Notes under the pieces: generated by a model
Seen by the model: only the letters and a program-made list of their open reading frames with translations
The model's database searches: none
What the model was told of the DNA's origin: nothing
Translations under genes and position numbers: made by a program
From: a virus
Reading direction: 5' to 3' (one strand)
DNA length: 64,000 nucleotides
Virus record (IMG/VR): IMGVR_UViG_3300002461_000132
Location: 1 to 64,000 of that record
Shown: piece by piece, positions 7,479-34,408 of the stretch
How the letters are laid out: each line of letters starts with the position of its first letter
Numbering within the stretch: the stretch's first letter is position 1

Positions 7479-7487
7479 GGCTGATCC

Positions 7488-8045: not shown

Positions 8046-8055
8046 TCGATCGCTC

Positions 8056-8325: not shown

Positions 8326-8372
8326 GCTTCAACCCTTCTACACGGCGCCGTCAACAGAAGTCAACAGCTAGA
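8326..8372 (-). promoter_or_regulatory. Second-class promoter (TTGACT-18-TAGAAGGG)
   Basis: Minus strand: TTGACT (8364-8359), 18 nt, TAGAAG (8340-8335), 9 nt, GTG 8325. TGTTGAC doublet with a 10-bp period. Confidence 0.4.
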
Positions 8373-10881: not shown

Positions 10882-10896
10882 GGGACAGGGGCCGCC

Positions 10897-11310
10897 TTAC
10901 GTCAGAGGACGATTGTCAACAGAGGTCAACGGTTGTACGACGCGCACGAGCTCGGGGTCAACGAGGCGCGGTGACCAGATCTTCGAAGCTACTACCTCGA
11001 GCACACTACGCGGTTCGTTACCGACGAAGATCGCGGCCGTCTCACCGGGAAACAGCATCCATTGCTGATCGACGAGGAGGAGCAACCACGCGCGTTGATC
11101 CGATCGCCACCGACGCGTCAACCACACGCGTTGCTCGGGCGAGAAGTGGGGCAAGCGTAGCGGTGTGCTGTCGCGCATCGGCCACGCGGCCGCGTACTTG
11201 AGCTCGATCCAACCGCCGGTGCAGTTGACGTCGGGGGTGCCCGGGTGCACCGGATTCTCGACGGAGATCGGATCAAGCGGACGCAGCGCGCGGATGACGC
11301 GCTGACGCAT
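10897..11310 (-). CDS. PD-(D/E)xK nuclease (VRR-NUC-like)
   Basis: HPGTPDVNCTGGWIELKY gives the G-x-PD...E-x-K core. ATG at 11310. Confidence 0.5.
   Translation of the reverse strand: MRQRVIRALRPLDPISVENPVHPGTPDVNCTGGWIELKYAAAWPMRDSTPLRLPHFSPEQRVWLTRRWRSDQRAWLLLLVDQQWMLFPGETAAIFVGNEPRSVLEVVASKIWSPRLVDPELVRVVQPLTSVDNRPLT
10913..10932 (-). promoter_or_regulatory. TGTTGAC-type doublet box upstream of the primase-helicase gene (no convincing -10)
   Basis: Minus strand CCGTTGACCTCTGTTGACAAT with a 10-bp period. The spacing to any TAnnnT hexamer is non-canonical. Confidence 0.3.
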
Positions 11311-11324
11311 GCGCGACTCGGCCT

Positions 11325-11788: not shown

Positions 11789-12221
11789 CGACGACCGTCA
11801 GCCCCGTGACCGGGATGAAGGCTTGCGTGATCAACGCGCGGAGGTTCGCGCTCGGATCCGTGGCGAGCTCGCGACGCTCGAGATCGAGTTGCCCGAGCTC
11901 GAGGAGATCGATCGTCGGCAAGTGCAGGTCGCGCGCGAGATCCTTTTCGATCTTCATCCCAGGCGACAGCACACCGCCGACGAGCACGATCCCATCGCAT
12001 CGGCGCAGCATCGCAATGTCGTCGCGGATGCCGCGCTCGCGATGCTTGCCCTCGTCGAGCACCTCGACGTAGGGCAACCACGGCAACGCGAACGCGACGG
12101 ACGGCACGCACTCGACGAGCATCGTCAACCACAGCTTTGCGATCGCGATGTTGTTGGTGCGCGTCGGCTCTTTGCTTCCGACGGGATGCGCGATGTAGAT
12201 GATCGGGGTGTTCTTGCTCAT
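11781..12221 (-). CDS. Nucleoside 2-deoxyribosyltransferase-like protein (DUF4406/DUF1937 type)
   Basis: N-terminal PIIYIAHPVGS and later CDGIVLVGG resemble the Rossmann-like deoxyribosyltransferase fold families. ATGA overlap with the polymerase stop. Confidence 0.4.
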   Translation of the reverse strand: MSKNTPIIYIAHPVGSKEPTRTNNIAIAKLWLTMLVECVPSVAFALPWLPYVEVLDEGKHRERGIRDDIAMLRRCDGIVLVGGVLSPGMKIEKDLARDLHLPTIDLLELGQLDLERRELATDPSANLRALITQAFIPVTGLTVVGG

Positions 12222-14146
12222 GCTGCTTTCTCCTCGTACTTCTCGAGCTCGCCGTAGTTGGGTCCGTACTCGATGTCGACGCGCGACGGCACGCGCAGCG
12301 GCAACGCATCCTTCATGATCTGCACGGCTTCCTTCGCGCGTTGCATCGACGCCATGCTGAAATCGAATTCGTCGTGCACGGTCAGTCGCGGATCGTAACC
12401 CTCGCGATCGAGCGCGACCAACGCCATCTTCGTCTGAATCGCCGCGCTCCCTTGGATCAGCCGGTTCAGCGCCTTGTAGGTCCAATCGAAGTTGCCGAAC
12501 GCGTCGCGGGGGAAGCGCACGCGACGGCCGTCGATCAGGAACAGGTAGCCGCGTTGCTTCGCGGTGTCGCTACACTCACGTGCTAGCGCACGCACGAACG
12601 GCACTTTCTGATCGAGCGTGTCGAGGAGCGCTTGCGCCTCGGGCCCCGCGGCGAGGTACGGCTCGCCGTTGCGGTTGTGCTTGATCTCCGTCGGCAACTT
12701 CATTTTCGTTGCGAAGGTGCCGCTCGCCATCCCGTAGCAGATCGCGAGAAACGTTTCCTTCGCATCGCCACGCTTCAAGCCCGAGAGCTTCGCGAACATC
12801 GTGTGCGAATCCATGTTCGGATCGGTGCGGTAGAGATCGCCGAATTCCTTCGCGCCGCGCAGCCCGCGCACCTCGGCGTAGTGCACCGTCGTGCGGGGCT
12901 CTTGTTGCGAGTAGTCCCCCTTGATCCACATCTCGCCTTCCTCGGGGATGTAGATCTTTCGCCACTCCTTCCCGGTCTCGGGATCGCGGTTCGGCTGCGC
13001 TTGCACGTTCGGATGACGCGCGGCCGATCGCCCGTAGCGCGCTCCCTCGTCGTCGTCCTCGTCGTCGTCGGCGGCCGTGCGCATCTGCTTGAACGATGGA
13101 TGCAAGCGATCGCCGATCAGGTGATCGCGCACGCCGGCGACGTACGTCGTTTCGATCTTGTCGAATTTTCGCCAGCGCGTGATCGCGTCGACGACAGCGT
13201 TGCCCGAGAATTGGCCGAGTAGCTCTTTCGTGATCGACAGGTTACCGGGCTTGTTGGCGGCCGCTTGCTTCACCGTCGGCGGGTTGCGCGGGACGTGGAT
13301 GCCCTGCGTCTTGAGCGCCGCGGCGAGGGCATCCTTCATCATCGGCGACGGCACGTCGACGCCGGTCAGATGCTTGATCTTCGCGCGCATCTCGGCCGTG
13401 ACCGAGAGACACCACCGCGACATTCGCTCGAGGTGCTCGAGGTCGATGCGAACCCCTCGACGCGTCATGCGAAGCAGCGCGAGTTGCACGTATGACTCGT
13501 TGTCGTACGCGCGCTCGAGCTTCTGCTCGATGATCTTCTTCTCTTGAACGCGAAGCACCTTCGGCAGATCGCGCACGTCGCCTTCGGCATAGCGGCCGGC
13601 CGCGCCGGCGTGGAGCTTCCACAACTCTTTCTTCGGATGGAACCCCCACTCGATCGCGTGCGCCTCGAGCTCCTTCTCGTACTTGCCCTCGAACCCGTGT
13701 CGCTTCAACGTCGCGTCTAGGCTGTAGTCCATTTGCAATTCGTCGAGGAGACACTCGGCGTTCTGGACGTCGCGGTGCCACTTCGCGCGCTTGAATTCGA
13801 TCCCATCGTTCCACAGGTAGTCATGATCGTACTGACCACCGGACGTGATGATCGTGCCTTCGAAGTCGCGACACTGATCGCGGAAGTACGACACGACGTG
13901 CGCGCGATCGAGGTTGCCGCCTCCGGCGTGCGCGAACGGCAAGTAGTGTGCGGGGCCGTCCTCGATCGCGAACGCGATGCCGACCATGTGGCCGCCTCGA
14001 CGGCAACCGTTGCCGAGCTTCGACAGCGTGTCGTCACGGCACTCGATATCCACCGCCACGCGTTGCGCGTCTCGCCACGATGGCAAGCTGTTGACCGCGG
14101 GCGCTTGCCACGTGATCTTGGGGGCGAACATCGGAAGCTGTTGCAT
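12218..14146 (-). CDS. Family A DNA polymerase with 3'-5' exonuclease domain
   Basis: Exo I (VAVDIECRD), motif A (KGDYSQQEPR), motif B (RGDAKETFLAICYGM), motif C (LTVHDEFDF). Start taken at ATG 14146; GTG 14188 is also possible. Confidence 0.85.
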   Translation of the reverse strand: MQQLPMFAPKITWQAPAVNSLPSWRDAQRVAVDIECRDDTLSKLGNGCRRGGHMVGIAFAIEDGPAHYLPFAHAGGGNLDRAHVVSYFRDQCRDFEGTIITSGGQYDHDYLWNDGIEFKRAKWHRDVQNAECLLDELQMDYSLDATLKRHGFEGKYEKELEAHAIEWGFHPKKELWKLHAGAAGRYAEGDVRDLPKVLRVQEKKIIEQKLERAYDNESYVQLALLRMTRRGVRIDLEHLERMSRWCLSVTAEMRAKIKHLTGVDVPSPMMKDALAAALKTQGIHVPRNPPTVKQAAANKPGNLSITKELLGQFSGNAVVDAITRWRKFDKIETTYVAGVRDHLIGDRLHPSFKQMRTAADDDEDDDEGARYGRSAARHPNVQAQPNRDPETGKEWRKIYIPEEGEMWIKGDYSQQEPRTTVHYAEVRGLRGAKEFGDLYRTDPNMDSHTMFAKLSGLKRGDAKETFLAICYGMASGTFATKMKLPTEIKHNRNGEPYLAAGPEAQALLDTLDQKVPFVRALARECSDTAKQRGYLFLIDGRRVRFPRDAFGNFDWTYKALNRLIQGSAAIQTKMALVALDREGYDPRLTVHDEFDFSMASMQRAKEAVQIMKDALPLRVPSRVDIEYGPNYGELEKYEEKAA

Positions 14147-17803: not shown

Positions 17804-18421
17804 CTACTTCGAGGTCGACTTGATCTTCGCGGCACGCTGATCGAACACGCGGATCAGATCCCGCGGCACGTCGCGGCCGCTGTCGAGGAGCTCGCGCACG
17901 AGCTTCGCCAGCGTCGACGCGTGCACATCCTTCTCGGCGAGCACGGGCAACCCGCGGCCGAGGAGCTCGGCCGCAAGCTCGTCGGCGCGATCATCCTGTC
18001 CGCGGTCGAGCTCGATCGAGACCTTGTTCTTGACGAGCGCTCCGTGTCCGTGATCGATCAGCCACTTGATCGCGCCGGCGCGCAACTCGGGGGCATCGTC
18101 GCGCGACGGCAGCGACGCGCGGATCTTCGACTCGACGGTGACCTTCCAACCGGCGCGCGTCACGCACTCGCGCAACTTCATCTGATCCATCTGTTCCGGG
18201 ATCTGGCGCTCGTAGATGTCCGCACGCGCAGCCTTCGCAACGATGACGTCGGCCTCGAGCCGCTCGAGCAAGTCATCGGCGCGCGCGCCTTCCGACACCA
18301 ATCGATCGAGCTCGTCGAACGCGCGATCGACAGCCGAGGCCGTCGGGTTGGCGTCGGCACCGTAGTCGTCGGCACCGCTCGCAGGAACATCACCGCTCAC
18401 ATCATTCTGATCTTGGGACAT
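17804..18421 (-). CDS. Hypothetical acidic protein (205 aa)
   Basis: Clean ORF with an ATG start, high GC3 and an acidic N terminus. No motif recognised. Confidence 0.6.
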   Translation of the reverse strand: MSQDQNDVSGDVPASGADDYGADANPTASAVDRAFDELDRLVSEGARADDLLERLEADVIVAKAARADIYERQIPEQMDQMKLRECVTRAGWKVTVESKIRASLPSRDDAPELRAGAIKWLIDHGHGALVKNKVSIELDRGQDDRADELAAELLGRGLPVLAEKDVHASTLAKLVRELLDSGRDVPRDLIRVFDQRAAKIKSTSK

Positions 18422-18462
18422 GTTGACGACTGGTACCAGATGTCAACAGATCGCGTCAAGTG
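18422..18462 (-). promoter_or_regulatory. Possible promoter upstream of 17804..18421
   Basis: Minus strand: TTGACG (18459-18454), 18 nt, TACCAG (18435-18430), 8 nt, ATG 18421. A TGTTGACA box also lies at 18448-18441. Confidence 0.3.
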
Positions 18463-21692: not shown

Positions 21693-21911
21693 CTACGCCG
21701 CTTTCTTCTTCGGGCCGGCCGCGGCCGCCTCGAGCTCGATCTCGCGGTTGCCGACGCTGCGCAGCCACGCGGCCGCGCTCGCGAACCCCTTCGAGTGCGC
21801 GTGATCTTCCCACTTCGCGAGCTCGGGATCCGTCGTGCGGATCTGGTAGCGCCGCTCGAGCGGCGACTTCTTCGAGCTCGGGTGACCCTTACGCTTCTTC
21901 GTTCCTGCCAT
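21693..21911 (-). CDS. Ribbon-helix-helix (CopG/MobC-like) DNA-binding protein
   Basis: RRYQIRTTDPELAKWEDHAHSKGFASAAAWLRSV fits a beta-strand, helix, helix pattern. Basic N terminus. ATG at 21911 directly after a promoter-like element. Confidence 0.5.
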   Translation of the reverse strand: MAGTKKRKGHPSSKKSPLERRYQIRTTDPELAKWEDHAHSKGFASAAAWLRSVGNREIELEAAAAGPKKKAA

Positions 21912-21962
21912 GATGGTCCCTTCTACTATCTCGCGTTGCGAGTTGTCAACAGTTGTCATACC
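21912..21962 (-). promoter_or_regulatory. Second-class promoter (TTGACA-18-TAGAAGGG)
   Basis: Minus strand: TTGACA (21949-21944), 18 nt, TAGAAG (21925-21920), 8 nt, ATG 21911. A degenerate second box (ATGACA) lies 10 bp upstream. Confidence 0.4.
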
Positions 21963-22285
21963 CCGAGGTGCTCGAGGCCGAGACGCAATTGCGTGACGAC
22001 GGAAAAGATCGCGGTCTGGATCGTCGACGGTGCGCGCATCGCGATCGCGTTGAAGTTGCGAATGCACTCGAGCACGCGCTCGCGCATGTCGACGGCCGCG
22101 CACGCGCTCGCCCACTCCGTCGACGAGAACGTCACCGCTCCGAGAAACTTCGCGTCGGTGTCCTCGCCGTCACCGACGCGCGCGAACACCTGCGTGCGCA
22201 CCGAACCATTCTCGAGCACCGCGATCCGCTTGATCGCGAGCGCACCGATCACGAATTCGCCGATCTGATCCGCGGTGCGCATCAC
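21956..22285 (-). CDS. Hypothetical protein (109 aa)
   Basis: The GTG at 22285 forms a GTGA overlap with the upstream stop. Balanced composition. Confidence 0.55.
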   Translation of the reverse strand: MMRTADQIGEFVIGALAIKRIAVLENGSVRTQVFARVGDGEDTDAKFLGAVTFSSTEWASACAAVDMRERVLECIRNFNAIAMRAPSTIQTAIFSVVTQLRLGLEHLGV

Positions 22286-22941
22286 GCAGCCTTCACGATC
22301 TCGAGCGCGATTTTCCGATCGGCGCTGCGCTCGATCGCGTCGACGCGGCCGTGCATCTCGCCGGCCGTCTTGTCGTCGACCCCGAGCACAACGATCATCT
22401 CGACGGCGCCGGTGCGCGCCAACGTGTCGACGATCTCGAGCGCTTGCGTCTTACTGTCGGGGAGCGACACGAGCACGTCACCGACTTCGACGCCGGCGGC
22501 CTTCAACGTGAGGGCACCGATCTCGTACATCGAAACGATCGCGCAGATCTCGCCGGCCTTCTGCCGTTCGCCGACGTCTTGGATCAGACGCCACGTCTGA
22601 TCGTCGCGCTCGCGCGCCGCTTGATCCGGGATCGTCCGGATCAACTGCTTCTCGCGCCCCGGTCGCGGTTCGCTCGGCGGCCGCACGGTGGACGCGAGGA
22701 GCTCGGCCGCGAGCTTCGTATCCCCTTGCGCGCGGTCGTATTCGTCCGACAGCAACGCGGCATCGTTCAACAGCGTGAGGAAGCACGAGCGTGCATCCTT
22801 GGAGCTTCCGAGCGTAGCGATCAGCATGCGAAATTGCTCGTCGCTGATCGGCGTGGTCACCGTGTCGGCGGCCGCCTTGTCGAGAGCTTCGCGAACGATG
22901 TGCGCCATGCGGCGAGCTTGAGCGGGGGAGTGTTCAGCCAT
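22282..22941 (-). CDS. RecA-core-fragment-like protein lacking Walker A and Walker B
   Basis: GEICAIVSMYEIGALTLKAAGVEVGDVLVSLPDSKTQALEIVDTLARTGAVEMIVVLGV aligns by eye to E. coli RecA [60 protein letters not shown]. No P-loop is present. The ATG at 22941 follows promoter cassette A. Confidence 0.5.
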   Translation of the reverse strand: MAEHSPAQARRMAHIVREALDKAAADTVTTPISDEQFRMLIATLGSSKDARSCFLTLLNDAALLSDEYDRAQGDTKLAAELLASTVRPPSEPRPGREKQLIRTIPDQAARERDDQTWRLIQDVGERQKAGEICAIVSMYEIGALTLKAAGVEVGDVLVSLPDSKTQALEIVDTLARTGAVEMIVVLGVDDKTAGEMHGRVDAIERSADRKIALEIVKAA

Positions 22942-22984
22942 GAGAGACAGGTTAAGGCTTTCGTCAACAGTTGTCAACAGGATG
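22942..22984 (-). promoter_or_regulatory. Promoter cassette A (leaderless geometry)
   Basis: Minus strand: TTGACA (22977-22972), 17 nt, TAACCT (22954-22949), 7 nt, ATG 22941. Contains the TGTTGAC doublet. Confidence 0.6.
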
Positions 22985-23380
22985 ACACACGTTGCACCAC
23001 GGTCCCAACATGGGGCATCGGCAAGCCTTCGGGTGCTCGATCCCGACGTCGAACGCGGGGCCGGCGAACGGCCACGACTTGCCGTACGACGCACCGTACC
23101 GGCGCGACCGGGCCGATCGAGCTCGTAGATCCTGCGACGGCGTGACCTCGAGCGCACCGGCATCGGACAACCGTCGCCAGTAGTCGGGGCACTCGGCCGG
23201 CCGCGTCACCGAGGAGCGCGCGAGTCGGTGCGCGACCTTGTTGATCCGGTAGCCGACTGTCGTCACCGACAACTCGAACAGCCGGGCAAGCGCCGCCTTC
23301 TTCACGCCGGCCGAGAACAGAAGCCAGATCATCGCGTCGCGCTGTTCACGTTCCTTCGCCGACAGCTTCATCGTCGTCAT
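22964..23380 (-). CDS. HTH DNA-binding protein
   Basis: N-terminal GVKKAALARLFELSVTTVGYRINKV helix-turn-helix. The ORF ends in a TGA inside the TGTTGA box of cassette A. The start is uncertain (ATG 23380, 23371 or 23332). Confidence 0.5.
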   Translation of the reverse strand: MTTMKLSAKEREQRDAMIWLLFSAGVKKAALARLFELSVTTVGYRINKVAHRLARSSVTRPAECPDYWRRLSDAGALEVTPSQDLRARSARSRRYGASYGKSWPFAGPAFDVGIEHPKACRCPMLGPWCNVCHPVDNC

Positions 23381-23789
23381 CCTCCTCGGTGCCCGACTTC
23401 GACAGGCACGCTTTGCAATCGTGCAATCGATCGTTCGTGAAGTCGATGCCCGAGTCGCAGACGGCCGCGGCCTTCTGCGCGGCCTCGAGATCGCCGGCGA
23501 GCACCGCCTTGAACACGTCGCGGATCGCGCCGTTGAGGAGCGCTTCCGTCGGGATGCCCTCGCACACGTTCCACGTCACCGCCATGCGGTGCGCGATGTC
23601 GACCTTCAAGTTGCCGTCACCTCCCTCGCCTCGCCACGTCATGCCGCCGAGCGATGCGAGCTCGAGGCGCGTGGCTTGGTTGACGGCGTGGTGCCGGTGC
23701 AGCTTCACGCCCTTGCGATCGGCCTCACCGACGAGCGCCTCGTGCGGCTGCTTCGGTTTCTTCTTCGGCTTCGCGGCCGCCTTGGTCAC
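23346..23789 (-). CDS. Hypothetical protein (147 aa), basic N terminus and acidic C terminus
   Basis: The GTG at 23789 forms a GTGA overlap. Sequence VTKAAAKPKKKPKQ...CKACLSKSGTEEDDDDE. Confidence 0.5.
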   Translation of the reverse strand: MTKAAAKPKKKPKQPHEALVGEADRKGVKLHRHHAVNQATRLELASLGGMTWRGEGGDGNLKVDIAHRMAVTWNVCEGIPTEALLNGAIRDVFKAVLAGDLEAAQKAAAVCDSGIDFTNDRLHDCKACLSKSGTEEDDDDEAVGEGT

Positions 23790-24232
23790 GGATGAAACTC
23801 GCGCAACACGTAGTCGTCGGGCTGCACCGTCATCGACCACTCTGATCGATCACCGAGACGTGCCGCAAGCGCGTCGGCCATCACGTTCGCATCGCGCTCG
23901 TTGGCGATGCCCTCCGCGATCAACACGTCATCTTTGCCCGGTGCCTCGCCACCAAACTCGTGCCGCTTCACGATCATGAACGTGCCGACCGGAACGCCCG
24001 TCGGTGGCACCGCGTCGCACGGTCCGTTGTCGAACGGATCGATCGACACGTCGCCGATGTCGACAGTGAACGATCGAACCTTGCCGCCGGGGGTCGCCAC
24101 GTTCAACTCGAACGTGTCACCGCGGATGTGCCCCATCACGTAGCGGTGCGCCGCGTCGACGGCCGAATCCTCCTCGAGCTCGACGACGTCGCGCGCGTAC
24201 TGCGCGTCGTACTCCCATACGCGAAACTTCAC
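23786..24232 (-). CDS. Hypothetical protein (148 aa)
   Basis: The GTG at 24232 forms a GTGA overlap. Sequence VKFRVWEYDAQYARDVVELEEDSAVDAAHRYV... Confidence 0.5.
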   Translation of the reverse strand: MKFRVWEYDAQYARDVVELEEDSAVDAAHRYVMGHIRGDTFELNVATPGGKVRSFTVDIGDVSIDPFDNGPCDAVPPTGVPVGTFMIVKRHEFGGEAPGKDDVLIAEGIANERDANVMADALAARLGDRSEWSMTVQPDDYVLREFHP

Positions 24233-24834
24233 GACGGCACCGTCAGGTTCGCCATGTCGTGCAGCGCGAGTTGCAACTTCGTCAGCGCGTCGCGCACCGG
24301 CGATCGCCGATCGAGGTTGAGGGCCCCGCTCGGCTCCTTGAACATGAACGCGAGCGCTCGCGAGAGCTCGGCCGTCGCGGTGTGCAGGTCCCCGATCCGA
24401 CAACCGGCCGCGTGTTGCGCATCGTCGCGGCCGTTGCACGCGTCGATACCGCGGGCGGCCGCCGCAACCTGCGACGCGCTGTCGAGCGCGCGCAACAGGA
24501 TCGTGTGTAGCCGATCGAGGGTGCCGAGCTTCTCGAGCTCGAGCTCGCTGTCGAAGATGATCGCTGGCCTCGTCTCGCGTTGATGCGACTCGAGAAAGGC
24601 TTTGATCTTCGCGCCGGCGTCGGGATCCGTCGGTGCGCGGCCGACGGGAATCGCGAACGGATCGGGCGCCTCGAGATCCTCGCCGAGCACGATGGGGCTC
24701 GACTGGTAGATGTGCTCGATGCCCTGGCAGTTGTCGCCAACGATCAGCGCACCGCCCTCGGTCTTGTCACACGCGCACGGATCCCCATGCTCGACGCGAC
24801 CCCAGCGATGAAAAAACGATTGCTTTCCGGTCAT
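24229..24834 (-). CDS. Hypothetical protein (201 aa)
   Basis: The ATG at 24834 forms an ATGA overlap. Sequence MTGKQSFFHRWGRVEHGDPCACDKTEGG... Confidence 0.55.
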   Translation of the reverse strand: MTGKQSFFHRWGRVEHGDPCACDKTEGGALIVGDNCQGIEHIYQSSPIVLGEDLEAPDPFAIPVGRAPTDPDAGAKIKAFLESHQRETRPAIIFDSELELEKLGTLDRLHTILLRALDSASQVAAAARGIDACNGRDDAQHAAGCRIGDLHTATAELSRALAFMFKEPSGALNLDRRSPVRDALTKLQLALHDMANLTVPS

Positions 24835-25127
24835 GGTCCCCTCGCGATCCAGTAGTCGATTTCGCGCACGCCACACCGGCACACGCCGGTCGAGATCGTT
24901 GCGCCGCTATACGTCGCGTATTCGAAGTCGTGCACGCTGTCGGCGAGCACGCACGGGTTGTGGTCGATCGTCAGCGTTGGAGGGAACGCGCCGAACCACG
25001 GGCACACGTCCGAATGCCCGAGCTTGCCGACGCTGTGATCCTCGGGGCATTCGCACTCGCCGCGAGCTCGAGACGCCTCGCCCCGGAGCTTGTCGAGGCG
25101 CGCGCGCACGATGTTCATGAACGTCAT
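24831..25127 (-). CDS. Cys-rich hypothetical protein (98 aa)
   Basis: The ATG at 25127 forms an ATGA overlap. Sequence MTFMNIVRARLDKLRGEASRARGECECPEDH...CRCGV. Confidence 0.5.
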   Translation of the reverse strand: MTFMNIVRARLDKLRGEASRARGECECPEDHSVGKLGHSDVCPWFGAFPPTLTIDHNPCVLADSVHDFEYATYSGATISTGVCRCGVREIDYWIARGP

Positions 25128-25405
25128 GCGAGCTCGCCGGTGTGGCTGATCCGATTGCCGTGCTCGTCGGTGTACGTCAGCGTGGCGATGCATCGGCAGT
25201 TGATCGGCATCGTCGGTGGTGCCGTGAAGTAGGCGTCGACGTTGATCGTGATCGTCGACGGTGCCGCGTTGCTCGGTGCGAGCGCACCCATGCGCACGAC
25301 GGCGTCAGCTTTCGCGACGTCCTCCGCACGCAACATCTCCTCGGCTTCGGCGCGCGTGATCTGACGCCGGCGCGCGACATCTTCGATCTCTTCGATCTCG
25401 ATCAC
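25124..25405 (-). CDS. Hypothetical protein (93 aa)
   Basis: Start placed at GTG 25405 (GTGA overlap with the lipoprotein stop). GTG 25417 is the longest alternative. Confidence 0.5.
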   Translation of the reverse strand: MIEIEEIEDVARRRQITRAEAEEMLRAEDVAKADAVVRMGALAPSNAAPSTITINVDAYFTAPPTMPINCRCIATLTYTDEHGNRISHTGELA

Positions 25406-25734
25406 AGGGGCCAACACGCCGGCGCTTGCGCGTCACACGCCGTCGCCTCGAGCTCGGCCACGCACGCGGTGAACGCCTCCCAGTTGGGGAACACGAGCGA
25501 CTCGTCGATCGAACCGCACCGCTTGATCCCGCGATCGTCCGTCTCGCACGTAACGAGCAACGTGTCGGCGAGCGTGGCCTCGCACAACTCGACGCGGCCG
25601 CCGTCGCACGCAACCGAGCGTTCGCAGTACGACGACGCGTACACCGACAACGCGTCACCGTACGTCGCCGGCGGGGCGTCGACGCCGGTGCACGCAACGA
25701 GGAGCACCGCGATCATCATGAGGGTTATACGCAT
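25402..25734 (-). CDS. Cys-rich secreted lipoprotein
   Basis: MRITLMMIAVLLVAC gives a signal peptide plus lipobox. The mature part has about 10 Cys. The ATG at 25734 lies exactly 7 nt after a -10-like hexamer, with TTGACA 17 nt further upstream. ATG 25743 is the alternative. Confidence 0.55.
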   Translation of the reverse strand: MRITLMMIAVLLVACTGVDAPPATYGDALSVYASSYCERSVACDGGRVELCEATLADTLLVTCETDDRGIKRCGSIDESLVFPNWEAFTACVAELEATACDAQAPACWPL

Positions 25735-25772
25735 GGGATTCATCGTGCGGCCGTTGTCAGACGTTGTCAACA
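25735..25772 (-). promoter_or_regulatory. Degenerate cassette-type promoter for the lipoprotein gene
   Basis: Minus strand: TTGACA (25770-25765), 17 nt, CACGAT (25747-25742), 7 nt, ATG 25734. A second TGTCTGAC-type box lies 10 bp downstream. Confidence 0.4.
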
Positions 25773-25774
25773 GG

Positions 25775-26773
25775 TCAGTGCACGGTGTCGACGATGTCGG
25801 GGTAGCCGGCCGCGTGGTGTGCGCGGGCTTCTTCGATCGTGTCGTAGATCTCTTCATCGAACCAACCGAGCTCGAGGGCGAGCTCGCGCTCGGCTTTCAA
25901 CTCGTCGAACCCCTGACGCGTCAGCGCTGTCGACTTGATCTCGATCGAGCTCGTTGCGCCGGCGAGCCGAGCTTCATCCTGGTACCGCGTCAGCACGCGC
26001 GGACCGTTGCCGCGGCCGTTCGTGCGGCCGACGAGGCGACGCACCGTCACGCTGTCCGACGTGATCTTCGCGTTCGGGCGCACCGACTTGATCGCGGCGA
26101 TCGCCGGCAAGAACTTCGGCGACTCGGGGCCGATGCCGAGCAAGTGAATCCGCGCGCCGAACCACGGCAACCCCGTGCAGAGCTCGCGCAGATCCTCGAG
26201 CGACGTTGCATCCTTCTTCATCGGGACGCCGGCGATCAGATCGGTCGGACGCATGCCGAGGATCTCGACCTGTCGGGCCCATGCCGCGGACATCGCAAGC
26301 GCACCCTTCTGCACCGGCACGATGATCTGCGCGCGCAACCCGGCGAGCAAGTGCATCACGTGCGACCAACGCGCGAGGCGTTCGAACGTCGCAGCCTGAT
26401 CACCGACGAGGTCGGGCGCAACGAGGTACGCGCGTTGACCGAACGTGTGGGCCGCCCAAAAGTAGATCGCGAACCGCTCGATCCACGACGCATCCGTGAT
26501 CGGCTTCTTCACGACGAGGCGGCCGGCCGTCGGGTCGAACGCGACTTCGCCGAACGCGCCGGAGTCAACGAAGATGCGCATCATCGGGCCGGCCTCGCGC
26601 TCGCACGCGTCGAGCAAACCATCGCGGATCTCCGTGGCGGTGATCCCGAAGTGGCGAGCCGATCGGCAGAGCCCCATCACTTCGCCGGGGTGGTTCACGC
26701 CGGAAGCGAAATGCTCGCCTTCCTGCGAGAGCTCGAGCGGGTACGCGACGTCGGGGCGATACTTTCCTTGCAT
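25775..26773 (-). CDS. tRNA-guanine-transglycosylase-fold protein (DpdA-like DNA transglycosylase candidate)
   Basis: RIFVDSGAFGEV (compare TGT DSGGFQ), VAPDLVGD, IIVPVQKG, IAGVPMKK and IHLLGIGPESPKFL (compare TGT MGVGKPDD) are spaced as beta-strand ends of a TIM barrel. The ATG at 26773 follows cassette B. Confidence 0.45.
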   Translation of the reverse strand: MQGKYRPDVAYPLELSQEGEHFASGVNHPGEVMGLCRSARHFGITATEIRDGLLDACEREAGPMMRIFVDSGAFGEVAFDPTAGRLVVKKPITDASWIERFAIYFWAAHTFGQRAYLVAPDLVGDQAATFERLARWSHVMHLLAGLRAQIIVPVQKGALAMSAAWARQVEILGMRPTDLIAGVPMKKDATSLEDLRELCTGLPWFGARIHLLGIGPESPKFLPAIAAIKSVRPNAKITSDSVTVRRLVGRTNGRGNGPRVLTRYQDEARLAGATSSIEIKSTALTRQGFDELKAERELALELGWFDEEIYDTIEEARAHHAAGYPDIVDTVH

Positions 26774-26816
26774 GAGATACACTCTAAGCCTTCCGTCAAC
26801 AGTTGTCAACAGGTCC
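26774..26816 (-). promoter_or_regulatory. Promoter cassette B (leaderless geometry)
   Basis: Minus strand: TTGACA (26809-26804), 17 nt, TAGAGT (26786-26781), 7 nt, ATG 26773. Confidence 0.6.
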
Positions 26817-26823
26817 AAACGAA

Positions 26824-27129
26824 CTACGCCACGATCTTCGCGAGCGCGATCGACACGAGGCGTTGCGCGGCGAGCTCGAGCGCCGAGTCACGGAAGCCAC
26901 CGGCCGGAACGCCGGCGCGCGCGAAATCCGAGCGGAGGATCTCGATATGCGCATCGGTGCCGATGTCGCCGATGTAGCGGGGCATCGCGTAGAAGCGGAC
27001 ATCAGAACCCGAGCGCGACACGCGGTACACGTTGCCACGGATCGTCACGCGCGGACCGATCGCGCAAGTGACCTCGATCGCAAGCTGATGAATCTGCGCC
27101 GTCGTCGTTTCGTTGTTCGTCGTTTCCAT
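26824..27129 (-). CDS. Early ORFan (101 aa)
   Basis: METTNNETTTAQIHQLAIEV... The ATG lies 7 nt after the -10 of cassette C. No motif recognised. Confidence 0.6.
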   Translation of the reverse strand: METTNNETTTAQIHQLAIEVTCAIGPRVTIRGNVYRVSRSGSDVRFYAMPRYIGDIGTDAHIEILRSDFARAGVPAGGFRDSALELAAQRLVSIALAKIVA

Positions 27130-27172
27130 GAGAGACAGGTTAAGCCTTCCGTCAACAGTTGTCAACAGGTCC
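27130..27172 (-). promoter_or_regulatory. Promoter cassette C (leaderless geometry)
   Basis: Minus strand: TTGACA (27165-27160), 17 nt, TAACCT (27142-27137), 7 nt, ATG 27129. Confidence 0.6.
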
Positions 27173-27202
27173 AACGCGTCTACCGGAAATCGTCAACAGG
27201 TC

Positions 27203-27598
27203 CTAGCAGTTAGCCCCGTGGTTCGCACCGCGGCACATGCAATCGCATGCGGGGCCGGTCGCGTTGCGACAGATCGCCCCGCACTTGTGGCGCGACTTCT
27301 TCGTGCCCTCGGTGACCTTGTGCAGCTTGATCCACGTGTCGCAACCCGGGCACTTCGCGATCACCGACGCATCCTCGTTGTAGACGCGCGACGTTGCGAT
27401 CCCGGTCCCGTCAGCGTGCACGATCGCGATCCCCTGCAACGTCAGCCCCGACGCTCCCTCGAGCTTGTGCGTGCCCTTGCGGCCGCCGGCGCGACAGATC
27501 CGGCACCGGCCGATCCATCGGGCGGCCGCGGCGAGCTCGCGCACGAGGACGATCGGGCCGGTCGCCTTGAACGCCGGAAGCATGGTGATCGTCGTCAC
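27203..27598 (-). CDS. Cys-rich zinc-finger-like early protein (131 aa)
   Basis: The GTG start lies 2 nt after the upstream stop. Motifs CRICRAG, CPGCD and a C-terminal cluster HKCGAICRNATGPACDCMCRGANHGANC. Confidence 0.55.
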   Translation of the reverse strand: MTTITMLPAFKATGPIVLVRELAAAARWIGRCRICRAGGRKGTHKLEGASGLTLQGIAIVHADGTGIATSRVYNEDASVIAKCPGCDTWIKLHKVTEGTKKSRHKCGAICRNATGPACDCMCRGANHGANC

Positions 27599-27599
27599 G

Positions 27600-27821
27600 T
27601 TAGATCGCCACGGCGAGGCGTTGCTCGGGCATCGTGCGAAGGATCTGGCGGTGGTACAGCCGCTCGAGCTCGCCGATGATCACCGCGTCAGCGTCCAACC
27701 GGCGCAACTGCGCGAGCTCGGCATGCATCGCGGCGATCCCGCCACGCAACCACGCGGCATCCGCGATCGTGCCGGCGATCGTGGTCTTACGGAGATACTC
27801 GGGGTTGATTTGTTTCGCCAT
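27600..27821 (-). CDS. Early ORFan (73 aa)
   Basis: MAKQINPEYLRKTTIAGTIADAAWLRGG... The ATG lies 7 nt after the -10 of cassette D. Confidence 0.55.
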   Translation of the reverse strand: MAKQINPEYLRKTTIAGTIADAAWLRGGIAAMHAELAQLRRLDADAVIIGELERLYHRQILRTMPEQRLAVAI

Positions 27822-27864
27822 GAGAGACAGGTTAAGCCTTCCGTCAACAGTTGTCAACAGGTCC
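27822..27864 (-). promoter_or_regulatory. Promoter cassette D (leaderless geometry)
   Basis: Minus strand: TTGACA (27857-27852), 17 nt, TAACCT (27834-27829), 7 nt, ATG 27821. Confidence 0.6.
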
Positions 27865-27874
27865 AACGCGATGA

Positions 27875-28198
27875 CTACGCGGCCGGGATCGCGGCATAGA
27901 TCGCTTTCGCGAGCTTGCTCACGTTGTACGACATGCCGGGGTACCACGTGCCGGTCTGGCATGCGTACAACGCCTCGATCTTCGCGAGCTCGCCCTCGAG
28001 TTGCTTCACATCTTCGAACGCGCCTTGCGCGGCGAGATACTTCGCATACGCGGCCGTCGACTTGCGCGCATACGCGCGCTCGTTGGCCTTGTACTGCGCG
28101 ACGATCATCGCACGCAACGTAGTGATCTGACCGATCACCGTCGAGATCTCGCCGTCGAAGGAGGTGATCACCGCGTGCGTTTCGTTCGTCGTTTCCAT
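27875..28198 (-). CDS. Early ORFan (107 aa), helical
   Basis: METTNETHAVITSFDGEISTVIGQ... The ATG lies 7 nt after the -10 of cassette E. It shares its first codons with 26824..27129. Confidence 0.6.
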   Translation of the reverse strand: METTNETHAVITSFDGEISTVIGQITTLRAMIVAQYKANERAYARKSTAAYAKYLAAQGAFEDVKQLEGELAKIEALYACQTGTWYPGMSYNVSKLAKAIYAAIPAA

Positions 28199-28241
28199 GA
28201 GAGACAGGTTAAGCCTTCCGTCAACAGTTGTCAACAGGTCC
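28199..28241 (-). promoter_or_regulatory. Promoter cassette E (leaderless geometry), leftward member of the divergent pair
   Basis: Minus strand: TTGACA (28234-28229), 17 nt, TAACCT (28211-28206), 7 nt, ATG 28198. Confidence 0.6.
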
Positions 28242-28304
28242 TGTAAGTGCATGAACCTGTTGACGATTCGGAACGGAGTGATCTCGAGGCAACTTCCGAG
28301 CGTT

Positions 28305-28347
28305 GGACCTGTTGACAACTGTTGACGCAAGGCTTAACCTGTCTCTC
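28305..28347 (+). promoter_or_regulatory. Promoter cassette F (leaderless geometry), rightward member of the divergent pair
   Basis: TTGACA (28312-28317), 17 nt, TAACCT (28335-28340), 7 nt, ATG 28348. Confidence 0.6.
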
Positions 28348-28725
28348 ATGCAACCGACTACCAACGAGATGACGGAGACCCAATCTGACGCGATGGTCGG
28401 CCTCGACGCGCTCGAGGCCGGTAACCTCGAGCGCGCTCGTGCGCTCCTCGTCGGTGCCGGCGTGACGGTCGAGATCGGCAGCACCAAGCTCGCCGGCGTC
28501 ATCGTCAAGGTGACGCGTTGCGTGATCACGGTGACGTACGGCCACGGTGACAAGCCCCGCACGTTTCGCAAGATGCCGGGCGCTGTGGCGAGCTCGGAAC
28601 GCATGGGCCCCGCCGGCCCCAATCCGCTGTTGCGCGGACCGATCCGCGATTCCCTCGAGCTCGCCGCGATCGACTTCGGCAACGTGGATCTCGACTTCAC
28701 GATCACCGGCTACGCGTGCGGCTGA
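28348..28725 (+). CDS. Early ORFan (125 aa)
   Basis: MQPTTNEMTETQSDAMVGLDALEAG... The ATG lies 7 nt after the -10 of cassette F. Confidence 0.6.
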   Translation: MQPTTNEMTETQSDAMVGLDALEAGNLERARALLVGAGVTVEIGSTKLAGVIVKVTRCVITVTYGHGDKPRTFRKMPGAVASSERMGPAGPNPLLRGPIRDSLELAAIDFGNVDLDFTITGYACG

Positions 28726-28730
28726 TCGTC

Positions 28731-28773
28731 TGACCTGTTGACAACTGTTGACGAAAGGCTTAACGTAGATCCC
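28731..28773 (+). promoter_or_regulatory. Promoter cassette G (leaderless geometry)
   Basis: TTGACA (28738-28743), 17 nt, TAACGT (28761-28766), 7 nt, ATG 28774. Confidence 0.6.
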
Positions 28774-29226
28774 ATGACGAAACGCATTGTTCACGCCCCG
28801 ATGAATTGGCCGAGCACGGCCGTTGCGCGCGTCACGATCAATTGGTCGGAGATCTCCGGCGGTGACGGCCGCACGTTCGTCGGACTCGCGGGCATCGATC
28901 ATTGGCTGCGCGCGAAGCTCGATCAGGCAGCGCTCAAGAGCGAAGGAGCGTACGGGGATCGTGGTTGCGATCGTCCGTCGGGCTACCTCAAGACGGAGAT
29001 CGAAGTGGTGTGGTGTGACGGCGAGCGGTTCACGTTCCGCGTCGATCTCAACTACGGCGTGACCTGTCGCGCCGATGCCCTCGGTTCGGACATCGTGACG
29101 GCCGAGCTCGTGCAGCGCGCGGCCTACTCGCGAGAGAAGGCCGACACGTTCGGCGTCTACTCGCCGGAGCTCTGCGCGTTCGTGGAATCGCGACTCGGCA
29201 CCATTGCACGCGAGCTCGCCGCGTGA
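28774..29226 (+). CDS. Early ORFan (150 aa)
   Basis: MTKRIVHAPMNWPSTAVARVTINW... The ATG lies 7 nt after the -10 of cassette G. GTGA overlap with the AlkB-like gene. Confidence 0.6.
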   Translation: MTKRIVHAPMNWPSTAVARVTINWSEISGGDGRTFVGLAGIDHWLRAKLDQAALKSEGAYGDRGCDRPSGYLKTEIEVVWCDGERFTFRVDLNYGVTCRADALGSDIVTAELVQRAAYSREKADTFGVYSPELCAFVESRLGTIARELAA

Positions 29227-29783
29227 CGTTGCCCGGCTGCTTCGCGCTGCAACGTCAGTGGATCATCGGTCACGATGCGGTGCTCGAGATCCTCGAGCGT
29301 ACGCTTCCGTGGTCCGTCGAACGAATCCGCATGTTCGGGCGCACCGTGCCGGTACCGCGTGCGACGGCGCTGATCGGCGAAGCACCGTACACCTACTCGG
29401 GCATCCGGCACACACCGGCCCCGTGGGATCCCATGCTCGCCGCGATGCGTGATCGCCTCGAGCGCGAGCTCGGGATCCGCTTCAACTCGTGTCTCGCCAA
29501 CTTCTACCGGAACGGCCGCGACTCGGTCGCCTGGCATGCGGATGACGAACCCGAGCTCGGCGAGCGGCCGACGATCGCAAGCGTGTCACTCGGGGACGCT
29601 CGGGCATTCGTCGTGCGTCGTGCCGCGGTTCCTCGCAACGTCGTCGAGGTGCTCGAGCTCGGATACGGTGACCTCCTCGTGATGCGCGACGAGTCGCAAG
29701 CGGACTATCAGCATTGCGTGTTCAAGACCTCGCATCCGGTCGGGCCCCGCATCAACCTGACGTTCCGATCCGTGCGCGTCTAG
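29223..29783 (+). CDS. alkB: AlkB-like Fe(II)/2-oxoglutarate-dependent dioxygenase
   Basis: NFYRNGRDSVAWHADDEPELG (HxD iron ligands), DLLVM...YQHCV (distal His) and RINLTFRSV (2OG-binding Arg) occur in AlkB order. Confidence 0.7.
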   Translation: MTLPGCFALQRQWIIGHDAVLEILERTLPWSVERIRMFGRTVPVPRATALIGEAPYTYSGIRHTPAPWDPMLAAMRDRLERELGIRFNSCLANFYRNGRDSVAWHADDEPELGERPTIASVSLGDARAFVVRRAAVPRNVVEVLELGYGDLLVMRDESQADYQHCVFKTSHPVGPRINLTFRSVRV

Positions 29784-29826
29784 ACTTGTTGACAACTGTT
29801 GACCACATAGCTAAGGTGACCACCAC
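29783..29826 (+). promoter_or_regulatory. Promoter cassette H (near-leaderless)
   Basis: TTGACA (29789-29794), 17 nt, TAAGGT (29812-29817), 9 nt, ATG 29827. Confidence 0.5.
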
Positions 29827-31452: not shown

Positions 31453-31650
31453 ATGGGTGCACGTACGAAATCAGTGCTGCGCGGTGACGCGATCGTGCGC
31501 GATCACAAGCTCGGCGACCTCGTCGAGATCAAGGATCGCGGGATGTGGATCAAGGCGACCTACCGCGGCCGCCTCAACAACCGATGGCATGCGGTCGACG
31601 TCGACGGCGTGCGCGTCGAAACGACCAACGTGCGAAAGGCCGCCTCGTGA
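31453..31650 (+). CDS. Small hypothetical protein (65 aa)
   Basis: A GGAGG Shine-Dalgarno lies 8 nt before ATG 31453. Sequence MGARTKSVLRGDAIVRDHKLGDLVEIKDRG... Confidence 0.5.
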   Translation: MGARTKSVLRGDAIVRDHKLGDLVEIKDRGMWIKATYRGRLNNRWHAVDVDGVRVETTNVRKAAS

Positions 31651-33731
31651 AACCGTCAGAGATCCCGTGCTTCGAAGCGAAGTGCAAAGGTGCCGTTGGC
31701 CTCGACTGTTCCGGTCGCGAGCTCGAGGCCAGCAACGGCCGGCCGCACTATCACATGTCGCGCGTCGAGGCGTCGGTGTCCCTCGTGCACGTCGAGCCGC
31801 TCCGTCGCCCCGCTGACGAATGCGTCGATGTCACTGGCGAGCTCGGCTTCACCGCCGACGAGCGCGCGGCCGAGCTCGAGAACCCTCGCCCCGGTGTGAT
31901 CGTGCTTCCGCATCCGCCGAGCGGTGCGCGCGCACACAACGGTCACTCGTTGCGGATCGATCTCGTGCCGCCGATCAACTTGACGATCCTCGACAAGACG
32001 TATGGCCGGATCCTCACGCAGATCGAAACGGATCGGCTGATCGCGTGCGAGCTATGGCAAGCGGCCCCCGAGCATCAGCGCACCGAGCTCGTCGGAATGT
32101 TCGGGCCGACAGTCGGCGTGCGGTGCGTGGATCCGAAGCGGCCGCGAAGTCTCGCGCGTCACACCGTCGGGCACGAGATCGCGGTGCGTCAGGTCGGCGG
32201 ATGGCACTCGGAACCGATCGCGCGCGCGATGCAACGTCGCCTGTACCGCGTCAACAACCGCGCCGGTTCGCCGACGATGGTGTGGGACGCCACGACCAAC
32301 GATGCGTTGCCGGGCATCCGCCGGCACATGTTCGTTGCGTTGATCGACGGTGACCACAACTTCATCGCGATCGATCAGCGCTGCTATCTCGACACCGTCG
32401 GCAACCTCGTGTGCACGTACCTCGACGATCCACGCAAGCCGATCGGCGGCACGTTCGGCCGCGTCACCGAGTTGTGGCGCGCGAAGGAGGGAGCGCAACA
32501 ACTTGTCACGCACGATGATCATCCGTGCATCGCGATCGCGCGCGTCGAGATCGACGAGGGCGTGCGCGTGTGGTGCAGCGGCACGACGGCCACCGTCGAG
32601 ACCGACGAGGGTGTCACGTACATGGGCGTGCAGATCGACTATGACGTGCGCGTCGAAGATCAGCGCGTGCGCTACCCGCTCGCTGGCATTCCGACCGAGA
32701 GCTATCGCCTCATGCGTGGTGACCTCGCACGCACGGTCGTGTGTGGCGTGTCGATGCCGATGGGTCGCGCCGAACCGCGCAAGAGCGATCCGCTTGCGCT
32801 CGACGCAAACGGCCTCGTCATGGTCGCCACGTTCGAAGAGATCGCGCAAGGCCGCATGATGGGGCGCGCGGCGAGCGATCCGCGAAACGGATCTCGAGGT
32901 CGCGAGATCGATGTAGCGCTGACGACGGCGATCGAGTCGTGGCAGTGGCGAAGCTCCGGCACGCGATCGCTTCGACGCGTCGTGACCACGGCGTTTCAAG
33001 AACCGCCCCGACGTGATTGCACATGGGGCATCGACGCGACACGATCGATCATCCGCTTCGAAGGTGACTCGAGCGCACGAGCAAGCTCTGTCACCAATCC
33101 GAATTGGCGATCCGAACCGCTCGGTGCGCTCGAGTCGTGGCGTCGGGTCGACGGTGGCCGATGGGAAGTCGTGTTGTGGGTTGTTGACAGCGTCGAGATC
33201 CGTCGCGTGCGTCGCCTCGGCACCGTCGACGAGAACGGCGCGATCGACTACATCGCCGGGTTTCGCGTGCCTCCCAACACGCGCATGCATCCCGACGATC
33301 TCGAGGCCGATCGCATCGCGCGCGAGCTCGAGGCCGAGGCCGAGCAAGATGCGATCGAGGCGCAGATCGCGCAGTCGCAACAAGATTCGATCGAGGAGCA
33401 ATCCGCGTTCTACGGTGGAACGCAACCGCACGATCTCGACGGTGGTGTGTGTACGCGGTGCGCATGGAGCGCTGTACTCGGCATCCCTGACACGGGATGC
33501 GAGAACCTCGATCCCGAGGTCGGCACCGCCGGATGTGCCGCGTGCAACGGCCTCGGTCGGCGCTGGGACAATCAGCAATGCTCGGTGTGCAACGGCTACG
33601 GCTACATCCAAGGCCCCGAGGTCGACGAAGTCGAGGCCGCGATCCCGCCGACGGATGACACCGCCGACGAGGTGCGTGCGCGCGCCGGCATGGGAATCAC
33701 GACTGTCCGAGATCCGGACGGTGCCGAGTGA
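31647..33731 (+). CDS. Large ORFan (694 aa) with C-terminal DnaJ-type CxxCxGxG zinc-finger repeat
   Basis: The GTG at 31647 forms a GTGA overlap. GC3 is consistently high. The C terminus carries CAACNGLGRRWDNQQCSVCNGYGYI. No other motif recognised. Confidence 0.6.
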   Translation: MKPSEIPCFEAKCKGAVGLDCSGRELEASNGRPHYHMSRVEASVSLVHVEPLRRPADECVDVTGELGFTADERAAELENPRPGVIVLPHPPSGARAHNGHSLRIDLVPPINLTILDKTYGRILTQIETDRLIACELWQAAPEHQRTELVGMFGPTVGVRCVDPKRPRSLARHTVGHEIAVRQVGGWHSEPIARAMQRRLYRVNNRAGSPTMVWDATTNDALPGIRRHMFVALIDGDHNFIAIDQRCYLDTVGNLVCTYLDDPRKPIGGTFGRVTELWRAKEGAQQLVTHDDHPCIAIARVEIDEGVRVWCSGTTATVETDEGVTYMGVQIDYDVRVEDQRVRYPLAGIPTESYRLMRGDLARTVVCGVSMPMGRAEPRKSDPLALDANGLVMVATFEEIAQGRMMGRAASDPRNGSRGREIDVALTTAIESWQWRSSGTRSLRRVVTTAFQEPPRRDCTWGIDATRSIIRFEGDSSARASSVTNPNWRSEPLGALESWRRVDGGRWEVVLWVVDSVEIRRVRRLGTVDENGAIDYIAGFRVPPNTRMHPDDLEADRIARELEAEAEQDAIEAQIAQSQQDSIEEQSAFYGGTQPHDLDGGVCTRCAWSAVLGIPDTGCENLDPEVGTAGCAACNGLGRRWDNQQCSVCNGYGYIQGPEVDEVEAAIPPTDDTADEVRARAGMGITTVRDPDGAE

Positions 33732-34096: not shown

Positions 34097-34111
34097 CGTA
34101 GCGTCGAAGGC

Positions 34112-34408
34112 ATGTCGAAAATGTACGCCAAGGTTGCAGGGTCCCTCTACAGCACCGTCACGAACGCGTCGCAGCAGATCAGCGCCGCGATGTCGGGCAA
34201 GAATCTCTATTCGTTCGTCTCGAGCACCGCGTGTTGGATCGCGCAAGGCGCGAACCCGACGGCCGCGAAGTCGGCGGGGTCGATGTTCGTGCCGGCCGGG
34301 GTGCCGGTGCTTCTGATCGGCAGCGCCGGCGCGAAGCTCGCCGTGCTGCGCGATGCGGCTGACGGTGGGTGCTCGATCACGCCGGTCGGCTTCCGCGCCT
34401 CGCCGTAA
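34112..34408 (+). CDS. Hypothetical protein (98 aa), Ala/Ser/Gly-rich
   Basis: MSKMYAKVAGSLYSTVTNASQQISAAMSGK... Last ORF before the repeat-rich intergenic region. Confidence 0.5.
   Translation: MSKMYAKVAGSLYSTVTNASQQISAAMSGKNLYSFVSSTACWIAQGANPTAAKSAGSMFVPAGVPVLLIGSAGAKLAVLRDAADGGCSITPVGFRASP

Follow-up and report, generated by a model that had tools for sequence, protein, structure and literature searches.

The Early Region and Its Cassettes

The stretch of DNA analysed here, called the window, comprises 64,000 nucleotides of the IMG/VR record IMGVR_UViG_3300002461_000132 and covers most of the genome of an uncultured, tailed phage of ~67 kb (67,201 bp) from an activated-carbon metagenome (ENA ERZ922818, SRR2905791; whole-genome shotgun prefix LNFM01). 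The G+C content is 62–68% throughout. The early genes diverge at ~28.2–28.3 kb, which gives the genome two arms. The leftward arm carries replication genes (DUF5906 primase-like, family A DNA polymerase, superfamily 1 helicase, Pam3 gp34-like, SNF2 helicase, and RecA-like), and the rightward arm encodes an AlkB-like oxygenase, a terminase, a Mu-like portal, and the major capsid protein (MCP). This divergent early region is flanked, between 22.9 and 29.8 kb, by seven near-identical 40-nt cassettes of the form CCTG-TTGACA-17 nt-TAnnnT-7 nt-ATG. These cassettes, which resemble promoters placed directly on the start codon, together with one partial and one degenerate copy, are the subject of this report. 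The copies and the open reading frames (ORFs) which they precede are as follows:

22942..22981, minus strand: cassette 1, CCTG-TTGACA-17-TAACCT-GTCTCTC, abutting ATG 22941 of a RecA-like ORF at 22282-22941 (219 aa)
26774..26813, minus strand: cassette 2, -10 hexamer TAGAGT, discriminator GTATCTC; ATG 26773 of a 332-aa ORF at 25775-26773, whose ortholog in the related locus L012 is also cassette-led
27130..27169, minus strand: cassette 3; ATG 27129 of a 101-aa ORFan at 26824-27129
27822..27861, minus strand: cassette 4; ATG 27821 of a 73-aa ORF at 27600-27821, followed by an abutting 131-aa ORF at 27203-27598
28199..28238, minus strand: cassette 5, predicted first leftward promoter of the divergent region; ATG 28198 of a 107-aa ORFan at 27875-28198
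28308..28347, plus strand: cassette 6, predicted first rightward promoter; ATG 28348 of a 125-aa ORF at 28348-28725
28734..28773, plus strand: cassette 7, -10 hexamer TAACGT, discriminator AGATCCC; ATG 28774 of a 150-aa ORF, followed by the overlapping AlkB-like ORF at 29223-29783
29785..29826, plus strand: cassette 8 (partial), CTTG-TTGACA-ACTGTTGAC in common with the others, -10 hexamer TAAGGT, 9-nt discriminator GACCACCAC; ATG 29827 (93 aa)
25735..25774, minus strand: cassette 9 (degenerate), CCTG-TTGACA-17-CACGAT-7; ATG 25734 of a lipoprotein-like ORF at 25402-25734 (MRITLMMIAVLLVAC...)

The TTGACA hexamers of the first eight copies start at 22977, 26809, 27165, 27857, and 28234 on the minus strand and at 28312, 28738, and 29789 on the plus strand. 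In all eight the spacer to the second hexamer is exactly 17 nt, this hexamer being TAACCT in five copies and TAGAGT, TAACGT, and TAAGGT in one each, and the ATG follows after 7 nt in seven copies and after 9 nt in the copy at 29789. A first-pass annotation made from the letters alone had listed these eight cassettes, and every coordinate and hexamer in it was correct. It had also called all eight near-identical, which holds for seven: a profile hidden Markov model built from these recovered them full-length (E <= 5e-16) and matched copy 8 over its first ~21 nt only (E 7e-5). The ninth, degenerate copy had been missed in that annotation; its spacer resembles the version found in relatives (ACGTC...). 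The 15-mer TTGACAACTGTTGAC has eight exact matches in the window and, with up to three mismatches, 14 matches versus 0.78 expected, a number reached in none of 100 shuffles.

A Shine-Dalgarno (SD) core is missing from discriminators such as GTCTCTC, and all cassette starts are ATG. Genes led by an SD sequence occur elsewhere in the same arms, at 30113 (GGAGAG), 31453 (GGAGG), and 36176 (AGGAG); on both points the first-pass annotation was accurate. Terminator-like sites were not predicted between the cassettes, and cassette 7 begins 8 nt past the stop codon of the preceding gene. A downstream TTGACG was considered as the -35 of a second promoter and rejected on reading the sequence, there being no -10 at a workable distance.

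The cassette block is non-coding. The 45 nt ahead of the ATG, taken in its frame, have log-odds of -0.29 to -1.62 per codon versus 0.52 +/- 0.31 in coding windows of this phage, the first percentile of which is -0.34. G+C at third codon positions (GC3) is 0.40–0.60 in the block versus 0.76–0.89 downstream of codon 16, and copy 8 contains in-frame stop codons. The cassettes precede unrelated, mostly ORFan genes on both strands, and only 4 homologous pairs exist among 28 cassette-led proteins of five phages, so the shared DNA is not due to gene duplication.

Cassettes in Related Phages

Relatives of the phage are found on metagenomic contigs of 58–67 kb, with SNF2 proteins 49–60% and MCPs 51–71% identical to those of the window. 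Their early regions were fetched as loci (L numbers in the following), and more members were found in IMG/VR. At least six relatives have cassette families of their own, with the following copy numbers per fetched locus: eight in L010, eight to nine in L011, three in L012, one in L013, twelve in L049, and three to five in L024. These cassettes precede many small genes around a divergent point and keep the geometry of TTGACA, a 17-nt spacer (18 nt once), TAnnnT, 6-7 nt, and ATG. Spacer and discriminator sequences are uniform within a phage and different between phages; common to four within-phage consensus sequences are only GTTGACAAC, one C in the spacer, and the T, A, and final T of the -10. 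The densest array seen is that of L049 (IMG/VR 3300033075_000332), where twelve cassettes (TTGACA-17-TAGACT-6/7-ATG) lie within ~8.5 kb at 4400-13000.

The window together with L010-L013 yields a set of 29 cassettes. TTGACA is exact in all of these, as it is in the degenerate ninth copy of the window. Discriminators of 6 nt and of 7 nt occur in 14 cassettes each, and a single one is 9 nt long. Position -1 always holds a pyrimidine (27 C, two T), and the four bases before the ATG are free of purines in 13 of the 29. The same spacing emerges from the genes called by the annotation pipeline across the clade: in 36 of 240 genes the start codon lies exactly 6 or 7 nt past the end of a TAnnnT, versus ~0-4 genes at any other offset, and the SD cores of the same 240 genes form a separate peak at 5–11 nt. 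For one gene the start itself can be compared, as the orthologs at window 26773 and L012 4851, which are 56% identical over 328 aa, both begin at the cassette ATG. These comparative data are the strongest support for a promoter with a leaderless start.

The architecture was not found in the cultured distant relatives Rhizobium phage RHph_Y60 and Roseobacter phage RDJL Phi 1, nor in the more distant metagenomic SNF2 relatives L022 and L023. An exact cassette 19-mer retrieved from IMG/VR only unrelated coding matches of 48% G+C, and a 28-nt degenerate cassette had no matches in the JGI metagenome and GTDB genome collections. By sequence the phage itself stands apart. A megablast search of 12 kb of the window against phage records gave no matches, the best protein matches among phages (of Rhizobium, Roseobacter, Pseudomonas, Pseudanabaena, and Xanthomonas) are 30–43% identical, and a search of IMG/VR with the portal protein confirmed no relative. 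Searches for the host failed to name one: an MCP profile run against genomes had one distant match, on a contig binned as Mycobacterium sp., which is not decisive, cluster look-ups led to nothing beyond the metagenome accession LNFM01, the endolysin matched a single uncultured phage, and the window contains no tRNAs. Known RNA families were not found in it either.

A Probable Promoter Set on the Start Codon

The explanation which we consider probable as a whole is that each cassette is a strong promoter for the primary sigma factor of the host, set such that transcription starts on the A of the ATG and gives a leaderless mRNA, with a regulator site built into the -35. A perfect -35 (TTGACA), a 17-nt spacer, and a minimal -10 (TAnnnT) would be read by the host primary-sigma RNA polymerase. 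As the pyrimidine-rich discriminator of 6-7 nt ends in C and abuts the ATG, the A of this codon would become +1, and the resulting mRNA, having neither leader nor SD sequence, would be translated by ribosomes recognising the 5'-terminal AUG. In Escherichia coli, transcription preferably starts 7-8 nt after the -10, at a purine preceded by a pyrimidine. Applied to the 29 cassettes, this rule favours a start at the A of the ATG in 28. The first-pass annotation had likewise placed the start on this A. Codon statistics, kept geometry, the -1 pyrimidine, and the layout known from Deinococcus argue for it indirectly; the claim does not extend well to copy 8, where the leader would be 0-2 nt and more probably 2 nt long.

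The beginnings of the genes fit leaderless initiation as well, for which A-rich and poorly structured first codons would be suitable. Codons 2–7 of cassette-led genes contain 37% A versus 24% in 128 other genes (Mann-Whitney p = 1.6e-8), and in minimum-energy folds the 5' AUG is unpaired in seven of the eight predicted mRNAs. The repetition of the module would follow from the same mode of expression. As an AUG has to be 5'-terminal for leaderless translation, a promoter of its own would be required for each small early gene or short coupled pair; with one promoter per unit the module would be repeated once per unit, and no room would be left for terminators between. Within a genome the copies may be kept near-identical by duplication or gene conversion. 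Since they precede unrelated ORFan genes, the cassettes would act as portable expression modules.

The TGTTGAC Half-Site

The core of the window's cassette is a direct repeat, TGTTGAC-AAC-TGTTGAC, with a 10-nt period; its first half overlaps the -35 and the second lies in the spacer. In the relatives the -35 is contained in a 17-bp palindrome of 7-3-7 format, TGTTGAC-AAC-GTCAACA (TGTTGACNNNGTCAACA), the GTCAACA of which occupies exactly the same spacer position as its reverse complement TGTTGAC in the window. The 7-mer thus persists in either orientation, which gives it the look of a protein-binding site overlapping the promoter. We tentatively suggest that TGTTGAC is the site of a phage or host regulator by which the whole early set is switched together; a protein bound over the -35 could control all these genes jointly. 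Half-sites also occur away from the cassettes of the window:

27192..27199, minus strand: single half-site CTGTTGAC, 27 nt upstream of the -35 of cassette 3
28257..28264, plus strand: single half-site CTGTTGAC in the divergent intergenic region, between cassettes 5 and 6
21945..21961, minus strand: diverged double half-site ATGACAACTGTTGAC, followed by an SD-led small basic ORF at 21693-21911
10915..10931, minus strand: diverged direct double half-site CGTTGAC-CTC-TGTTGAC upstream of the primase-like gene 8368-10881, with no clear -10
8350..8366, minus strand: direct double half-site TGTTGAC-TTC-TGTTGAC just past the primase-like gene, a possible leadered promoter or operator
18421..18448, no strand assigned: inverted repeat TGTTGAC-N14-GTCAACA of 28 bp with an internal CTGGTACCAG palindrome, between the SNF2 and DUF7307 genes

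At the same SNF2/DUF7307 intergenic position, TGTAGAC-N3-GTCAACA is found in all relatives. Their 7-3-7 palindrome is also present at a few non-promoter early sites, and nearly none are found in late regions. An exact direct double half-site, TGTTGAC-GCG-TGTTGAC, was seen at 9127-9143 (plus strand), antisense inside the primase-like gene.

Two small ORFs lie close to such sites. The basic 72-aa ORF at 21693-21911 is kept in L010, L012, and L015, always with a TGTTGAC-type site and an SD sequence upstream (the palindrome and an SD in the relatives), and its product is a candidate autoregulated DNA-binding protein; a conserved 286-aa gene is located downstream. The stop codon of the 138-aa ORF at 22964-23380 falls inside the second TGTTGAC of cassette 1. 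This ORF gave only weak hints of a helix-turn-helix (E ~0.16, Pfam with relaxed thresholds) and has no homolog in the fetched relatives.

Alternative Explanations

Several points weigh against a host promoter with a leaderless start. TAnnnT is present in all eight copies, but most of these hexamers match TATAAT at only three of six positions, and a simple E. coli-style promoter scan accepts only one of the eight copies (that with TAGAGT). Leaderless mRNAs are a minority in Gram-negative bacteria, the hosts of the nearest cultured relatives, and these phages are themselves without the architecture. With a 7-nt discriminator, the C in front of the ATG is at the canonical seventh position, which makes a 1-nt leader possible, and TTGACA could be kept partly as a piece of the protein-binding repeat rather than as a -35. 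Finally, a regulator was not identified by Pfam with relaxed thresholds, by a PDB sequence search, or by a single-sequence AlphaFold model (pLDDT 41, unusable).

The promoters might be real and yet start a few nucleotides upstream or downstream of the ATG, so that very short leaders or starts inside the gene would call for another initiation route. Start choice does vary over positions 6–9 after the -10, and copy 8, with its 9-nt discriminator, has an A at position 8. Such a shift is nevertheless unlikely as a general explanation, as in all but one of the 29 cassettes the start codon's A occupies position 7 or 8 behind a pyrimidine, and 13 of the 29 offer no purine in the four bases before the ATG; moreover, mRNAs with leaders of 0-2 nt behave like leaderless ones (PMC12340547).

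An improbable alternative takes the cassette as mainly a protein-binding or recombination element, comparable to operator or 'stoperator' arrays or to the module boundaries of T4; a few promoters would then serve the genes by read-through, and translation would start internally without SD sequences. It would accommodate the half-sites which occur as palindromes or direct repeats, also away from cassettes, the copies which are homogenised within a genome and flank variable ORFans, and the lack of terminators found between units. What it leaves unexplained is why, despite changing surroundings, all these phages keep the exact distances of TAnnnT to TTGACA (17 nt) and to the ATG (6-7 nt), and why the -1 pyrimidine is invariant and an SD missing. 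The two roles do not exclude each other, and the favoured explanation already holds a binding site.

It is very unlikely that a phage-encoded RNA polymerase or sigma-like factor, and not the host primary sigma, reads the cassettes. In favour of this reading, no family could be detected for several large proteins of early or middle genes, such as the 694-aa product of 31647-33731, for which a homolog search returned only the protein itself, and the distant relative YuA has nine conserved promoters unlike sigma70 sites (PMC10914365). A perfect TTGACA, the canonical 17-nt spacing, and TAnnnT are, on the other hand, the signature of a host primary sigma factor, the cassettes stand before the first genes on both sides, which have to be expressed before any phage protein exists, and no RNA polymerase or sigma domain was detected among the scanned phage proteins.

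Least credible is a coding block, in which the genes would start at an in-frame TTG or CTG ~45 nt upstream and share an N-terminal peptide (LDLLTTVDGRLNLSL...): the frame is open through seven of the eight cassettes and gene callers sometimes extend ORFs into them, but codon log-odds and GC3 of the block lie below the 1st–5th percentile of coding windows, the frame of copy 8 is closed by its stop codons, the same DNA stands ahead of unrelated proteins on both strands, relatives keep the positions of the -35 and -10 and not a peptide, and the homology of the orthologs stops at the cassette ATG. The start at the in-frame TTG, named in the first-pass annotation as an outcome that would refute its reading, is rejected by the computed coding score and GC3. 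Two further observations had spoken for coding. Three genes of L010 are called from GTG, TTG, or ATG within the cassette; these automated calls, at 3095-3630 and 4558-5034 (GTGTTGACGGGT, TTGACGGGTGTT, ATGTTGACGGGT), show that standard callers misannotate such starts. The other is that a protein look-up found no record of the 125-aa product which starts at the cassette 6 ATG 28348. In the ENA copy of the contig (L008), window positions 28382-28611 (230 nt), inside this first rightward cassette-led gene, are missing. This difference is a population or assembly variant, and as 230 is not a multiple of 3 it disrupts the 125-aa ORF in L008, which may be the reason why the product is not on record.

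A Possible Late Class

Hexamers at a comparable distance from start codons were also seen in the late region of the window, where TAGCGT, TAGCCT, or TACCCT, at 34099, 40908, 49148, 52373, and 56691, stand 6–8 nt before the ATGs 34112, 40920, 49160, 52386, and 56705, with neither an SD sequence nor a -35. The first of these is listed as the candidate:

34099..34114, plus strand: late-class candidate, TAGCGT, 7 nt, ATG 34112; no -35, no SD

In the relatives L020 and L021, genes at corresponding positions are preceded by hexamers of this kind, mostly TAGCGT or TAGGCT. Some apparent cases turned out to be upstream stop codons or SD sequences, for example, at 42416, and a factor-dependent late leaderless class is therefore suggestive and not established. 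The middle and late promoters of the Thermus thermophilus phage phiYS40 reportedly have no -35, with many leaderless transcripts, and would parallel such a class.

Both classes can be read jointly, as a leaderless strategy of the whole clade with two types of promoter, which we regard as possible but doubtful. The early module, uniform within each genome, would plug in ORFans without evolution of a ribosome-binding site (RBS) and would be the leaderless counterpart of the T4 PeSL system described below. The late class (TAGCGT/TAGGCT 6-7 nt before the ATG, no -35) would depend on a phage factor, and the orientation of TGTTGAC would reflect the specificity of a coevolving regulator.

Comparison with Known Systems

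The layout most similar to that of the cassettes is known from the leaderless genes of Deinococcus-Thermus, and it is also common in Actinobacteria. In D. radiodurans about a third of the ORFs have a TANNNT 6-7 bp upstream, which experiments have validated as the -10 of leaderless genes; expression increases when a -35 is placed 17 bp upstream of it, and other genes form a second class with GGAG (PMC12340547). The window shares with this the TANNNT next to the ORF, the missing SD, and a separate GGAG-led class. It differs in that the Deinococcus arrangement is a property of a host chromosome with diverse promoters and usually no consensus -35, whereas here a near-identical 40-nt phage module with a perfect -35 is present in 8–12 copies.

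Leaderless phage gene promoters have been described for phiYS40 (Sevostyanova et al. 2007, as cited in PMC4842269). These are described as being of the extended -10 type (TGnTA) and not as repeated identical -35/-10 cassettes, and no relationship to the window in sequence or gene content was found. In the Cluster O mycobacteriophages (Corndog and relatives), 8-9 SigA-like promoters are strongly predicted, three of them with a predicted start on the first codon, and a 17-bp 7-3-7 palindrome, TGTTCGGNNNCCGAACA, is present in more than 30 copies, most of them away from promoters (PMC4351075). Their promoters are not described as copies of one module, only the three are predicted to be leaderless, and the window phage is unrelated by megablast. 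The window has direct repeats and no TGTTCGGNNNCCGAACA palindrome; the palindrome of its relatives has the same 7-3-7 format with a different sequence.

Short regulatory units repeated ahead of small variable ORFan early genes are best known from T4-type phages, where PeSL cassettes (early promoter plus stem-loop) were proposed to be portable modules or recombination points (PMC2839356, PMC4122927). The window cassettes are likewise short, conserved, and placed before small, mostly ORFan early genes. A PeSL, however, combines a terminator stem-loop with a promoter and gives leadered, SD-dependent mRNAs, whereas the window cassettes contain neither hairpin nor terminator and abut the ATG; a T-tract after the palindrome was not seen in the sequences of relatives inspected. 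The sole indel observed, that of 230 nt, is not bounded by cassettes, and the relatives are too diverged for mapping recombination junctions. Like the stoperators of Cluster A mycobacteriophages and lambda-type operators, the half-sites are short, occur in many copies, vary from one related phage to the next, and overlap early promoters. Stoperators, as summarised in PMC4351075, are asymmetric sites of 13–14 bp across transcribed regions; the window sites, in contrast, sit at promoters, and neither a cognate repressor nor an integrase was detected among the scanned proteins.

The first-pass annotation was aware of no described phage system that reuses such a module. In view of phiYS40 and Cluster O this is too strong; what stands is that no account of 8–12 homogenised copies of one promoter-plus-leaderless-start module was found, and the motif strings did not turn up in the searchable literature.

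Significance

A new mechanism is not revealed by the cassettes, as each ingredient is documented elsewhere; a known mode of expression is used here unusually systematically. Should transcription prove to begin on the ATGs, the phage would offer a clear natural example of an early gene set expressed via leaderless mRNAs from one reusable 40-nt module. For annotation it means that gene callers misplace some of the cassette-led starts. For host prediction, the layout points to a host proficient in leaderless translation, and for synthetic biology the cassette is predicted to be a compact promoter which needs no RBS. With regard to phage evolution, portable modules combining promoter and start could explain the fast turnover of ORFan early genes.

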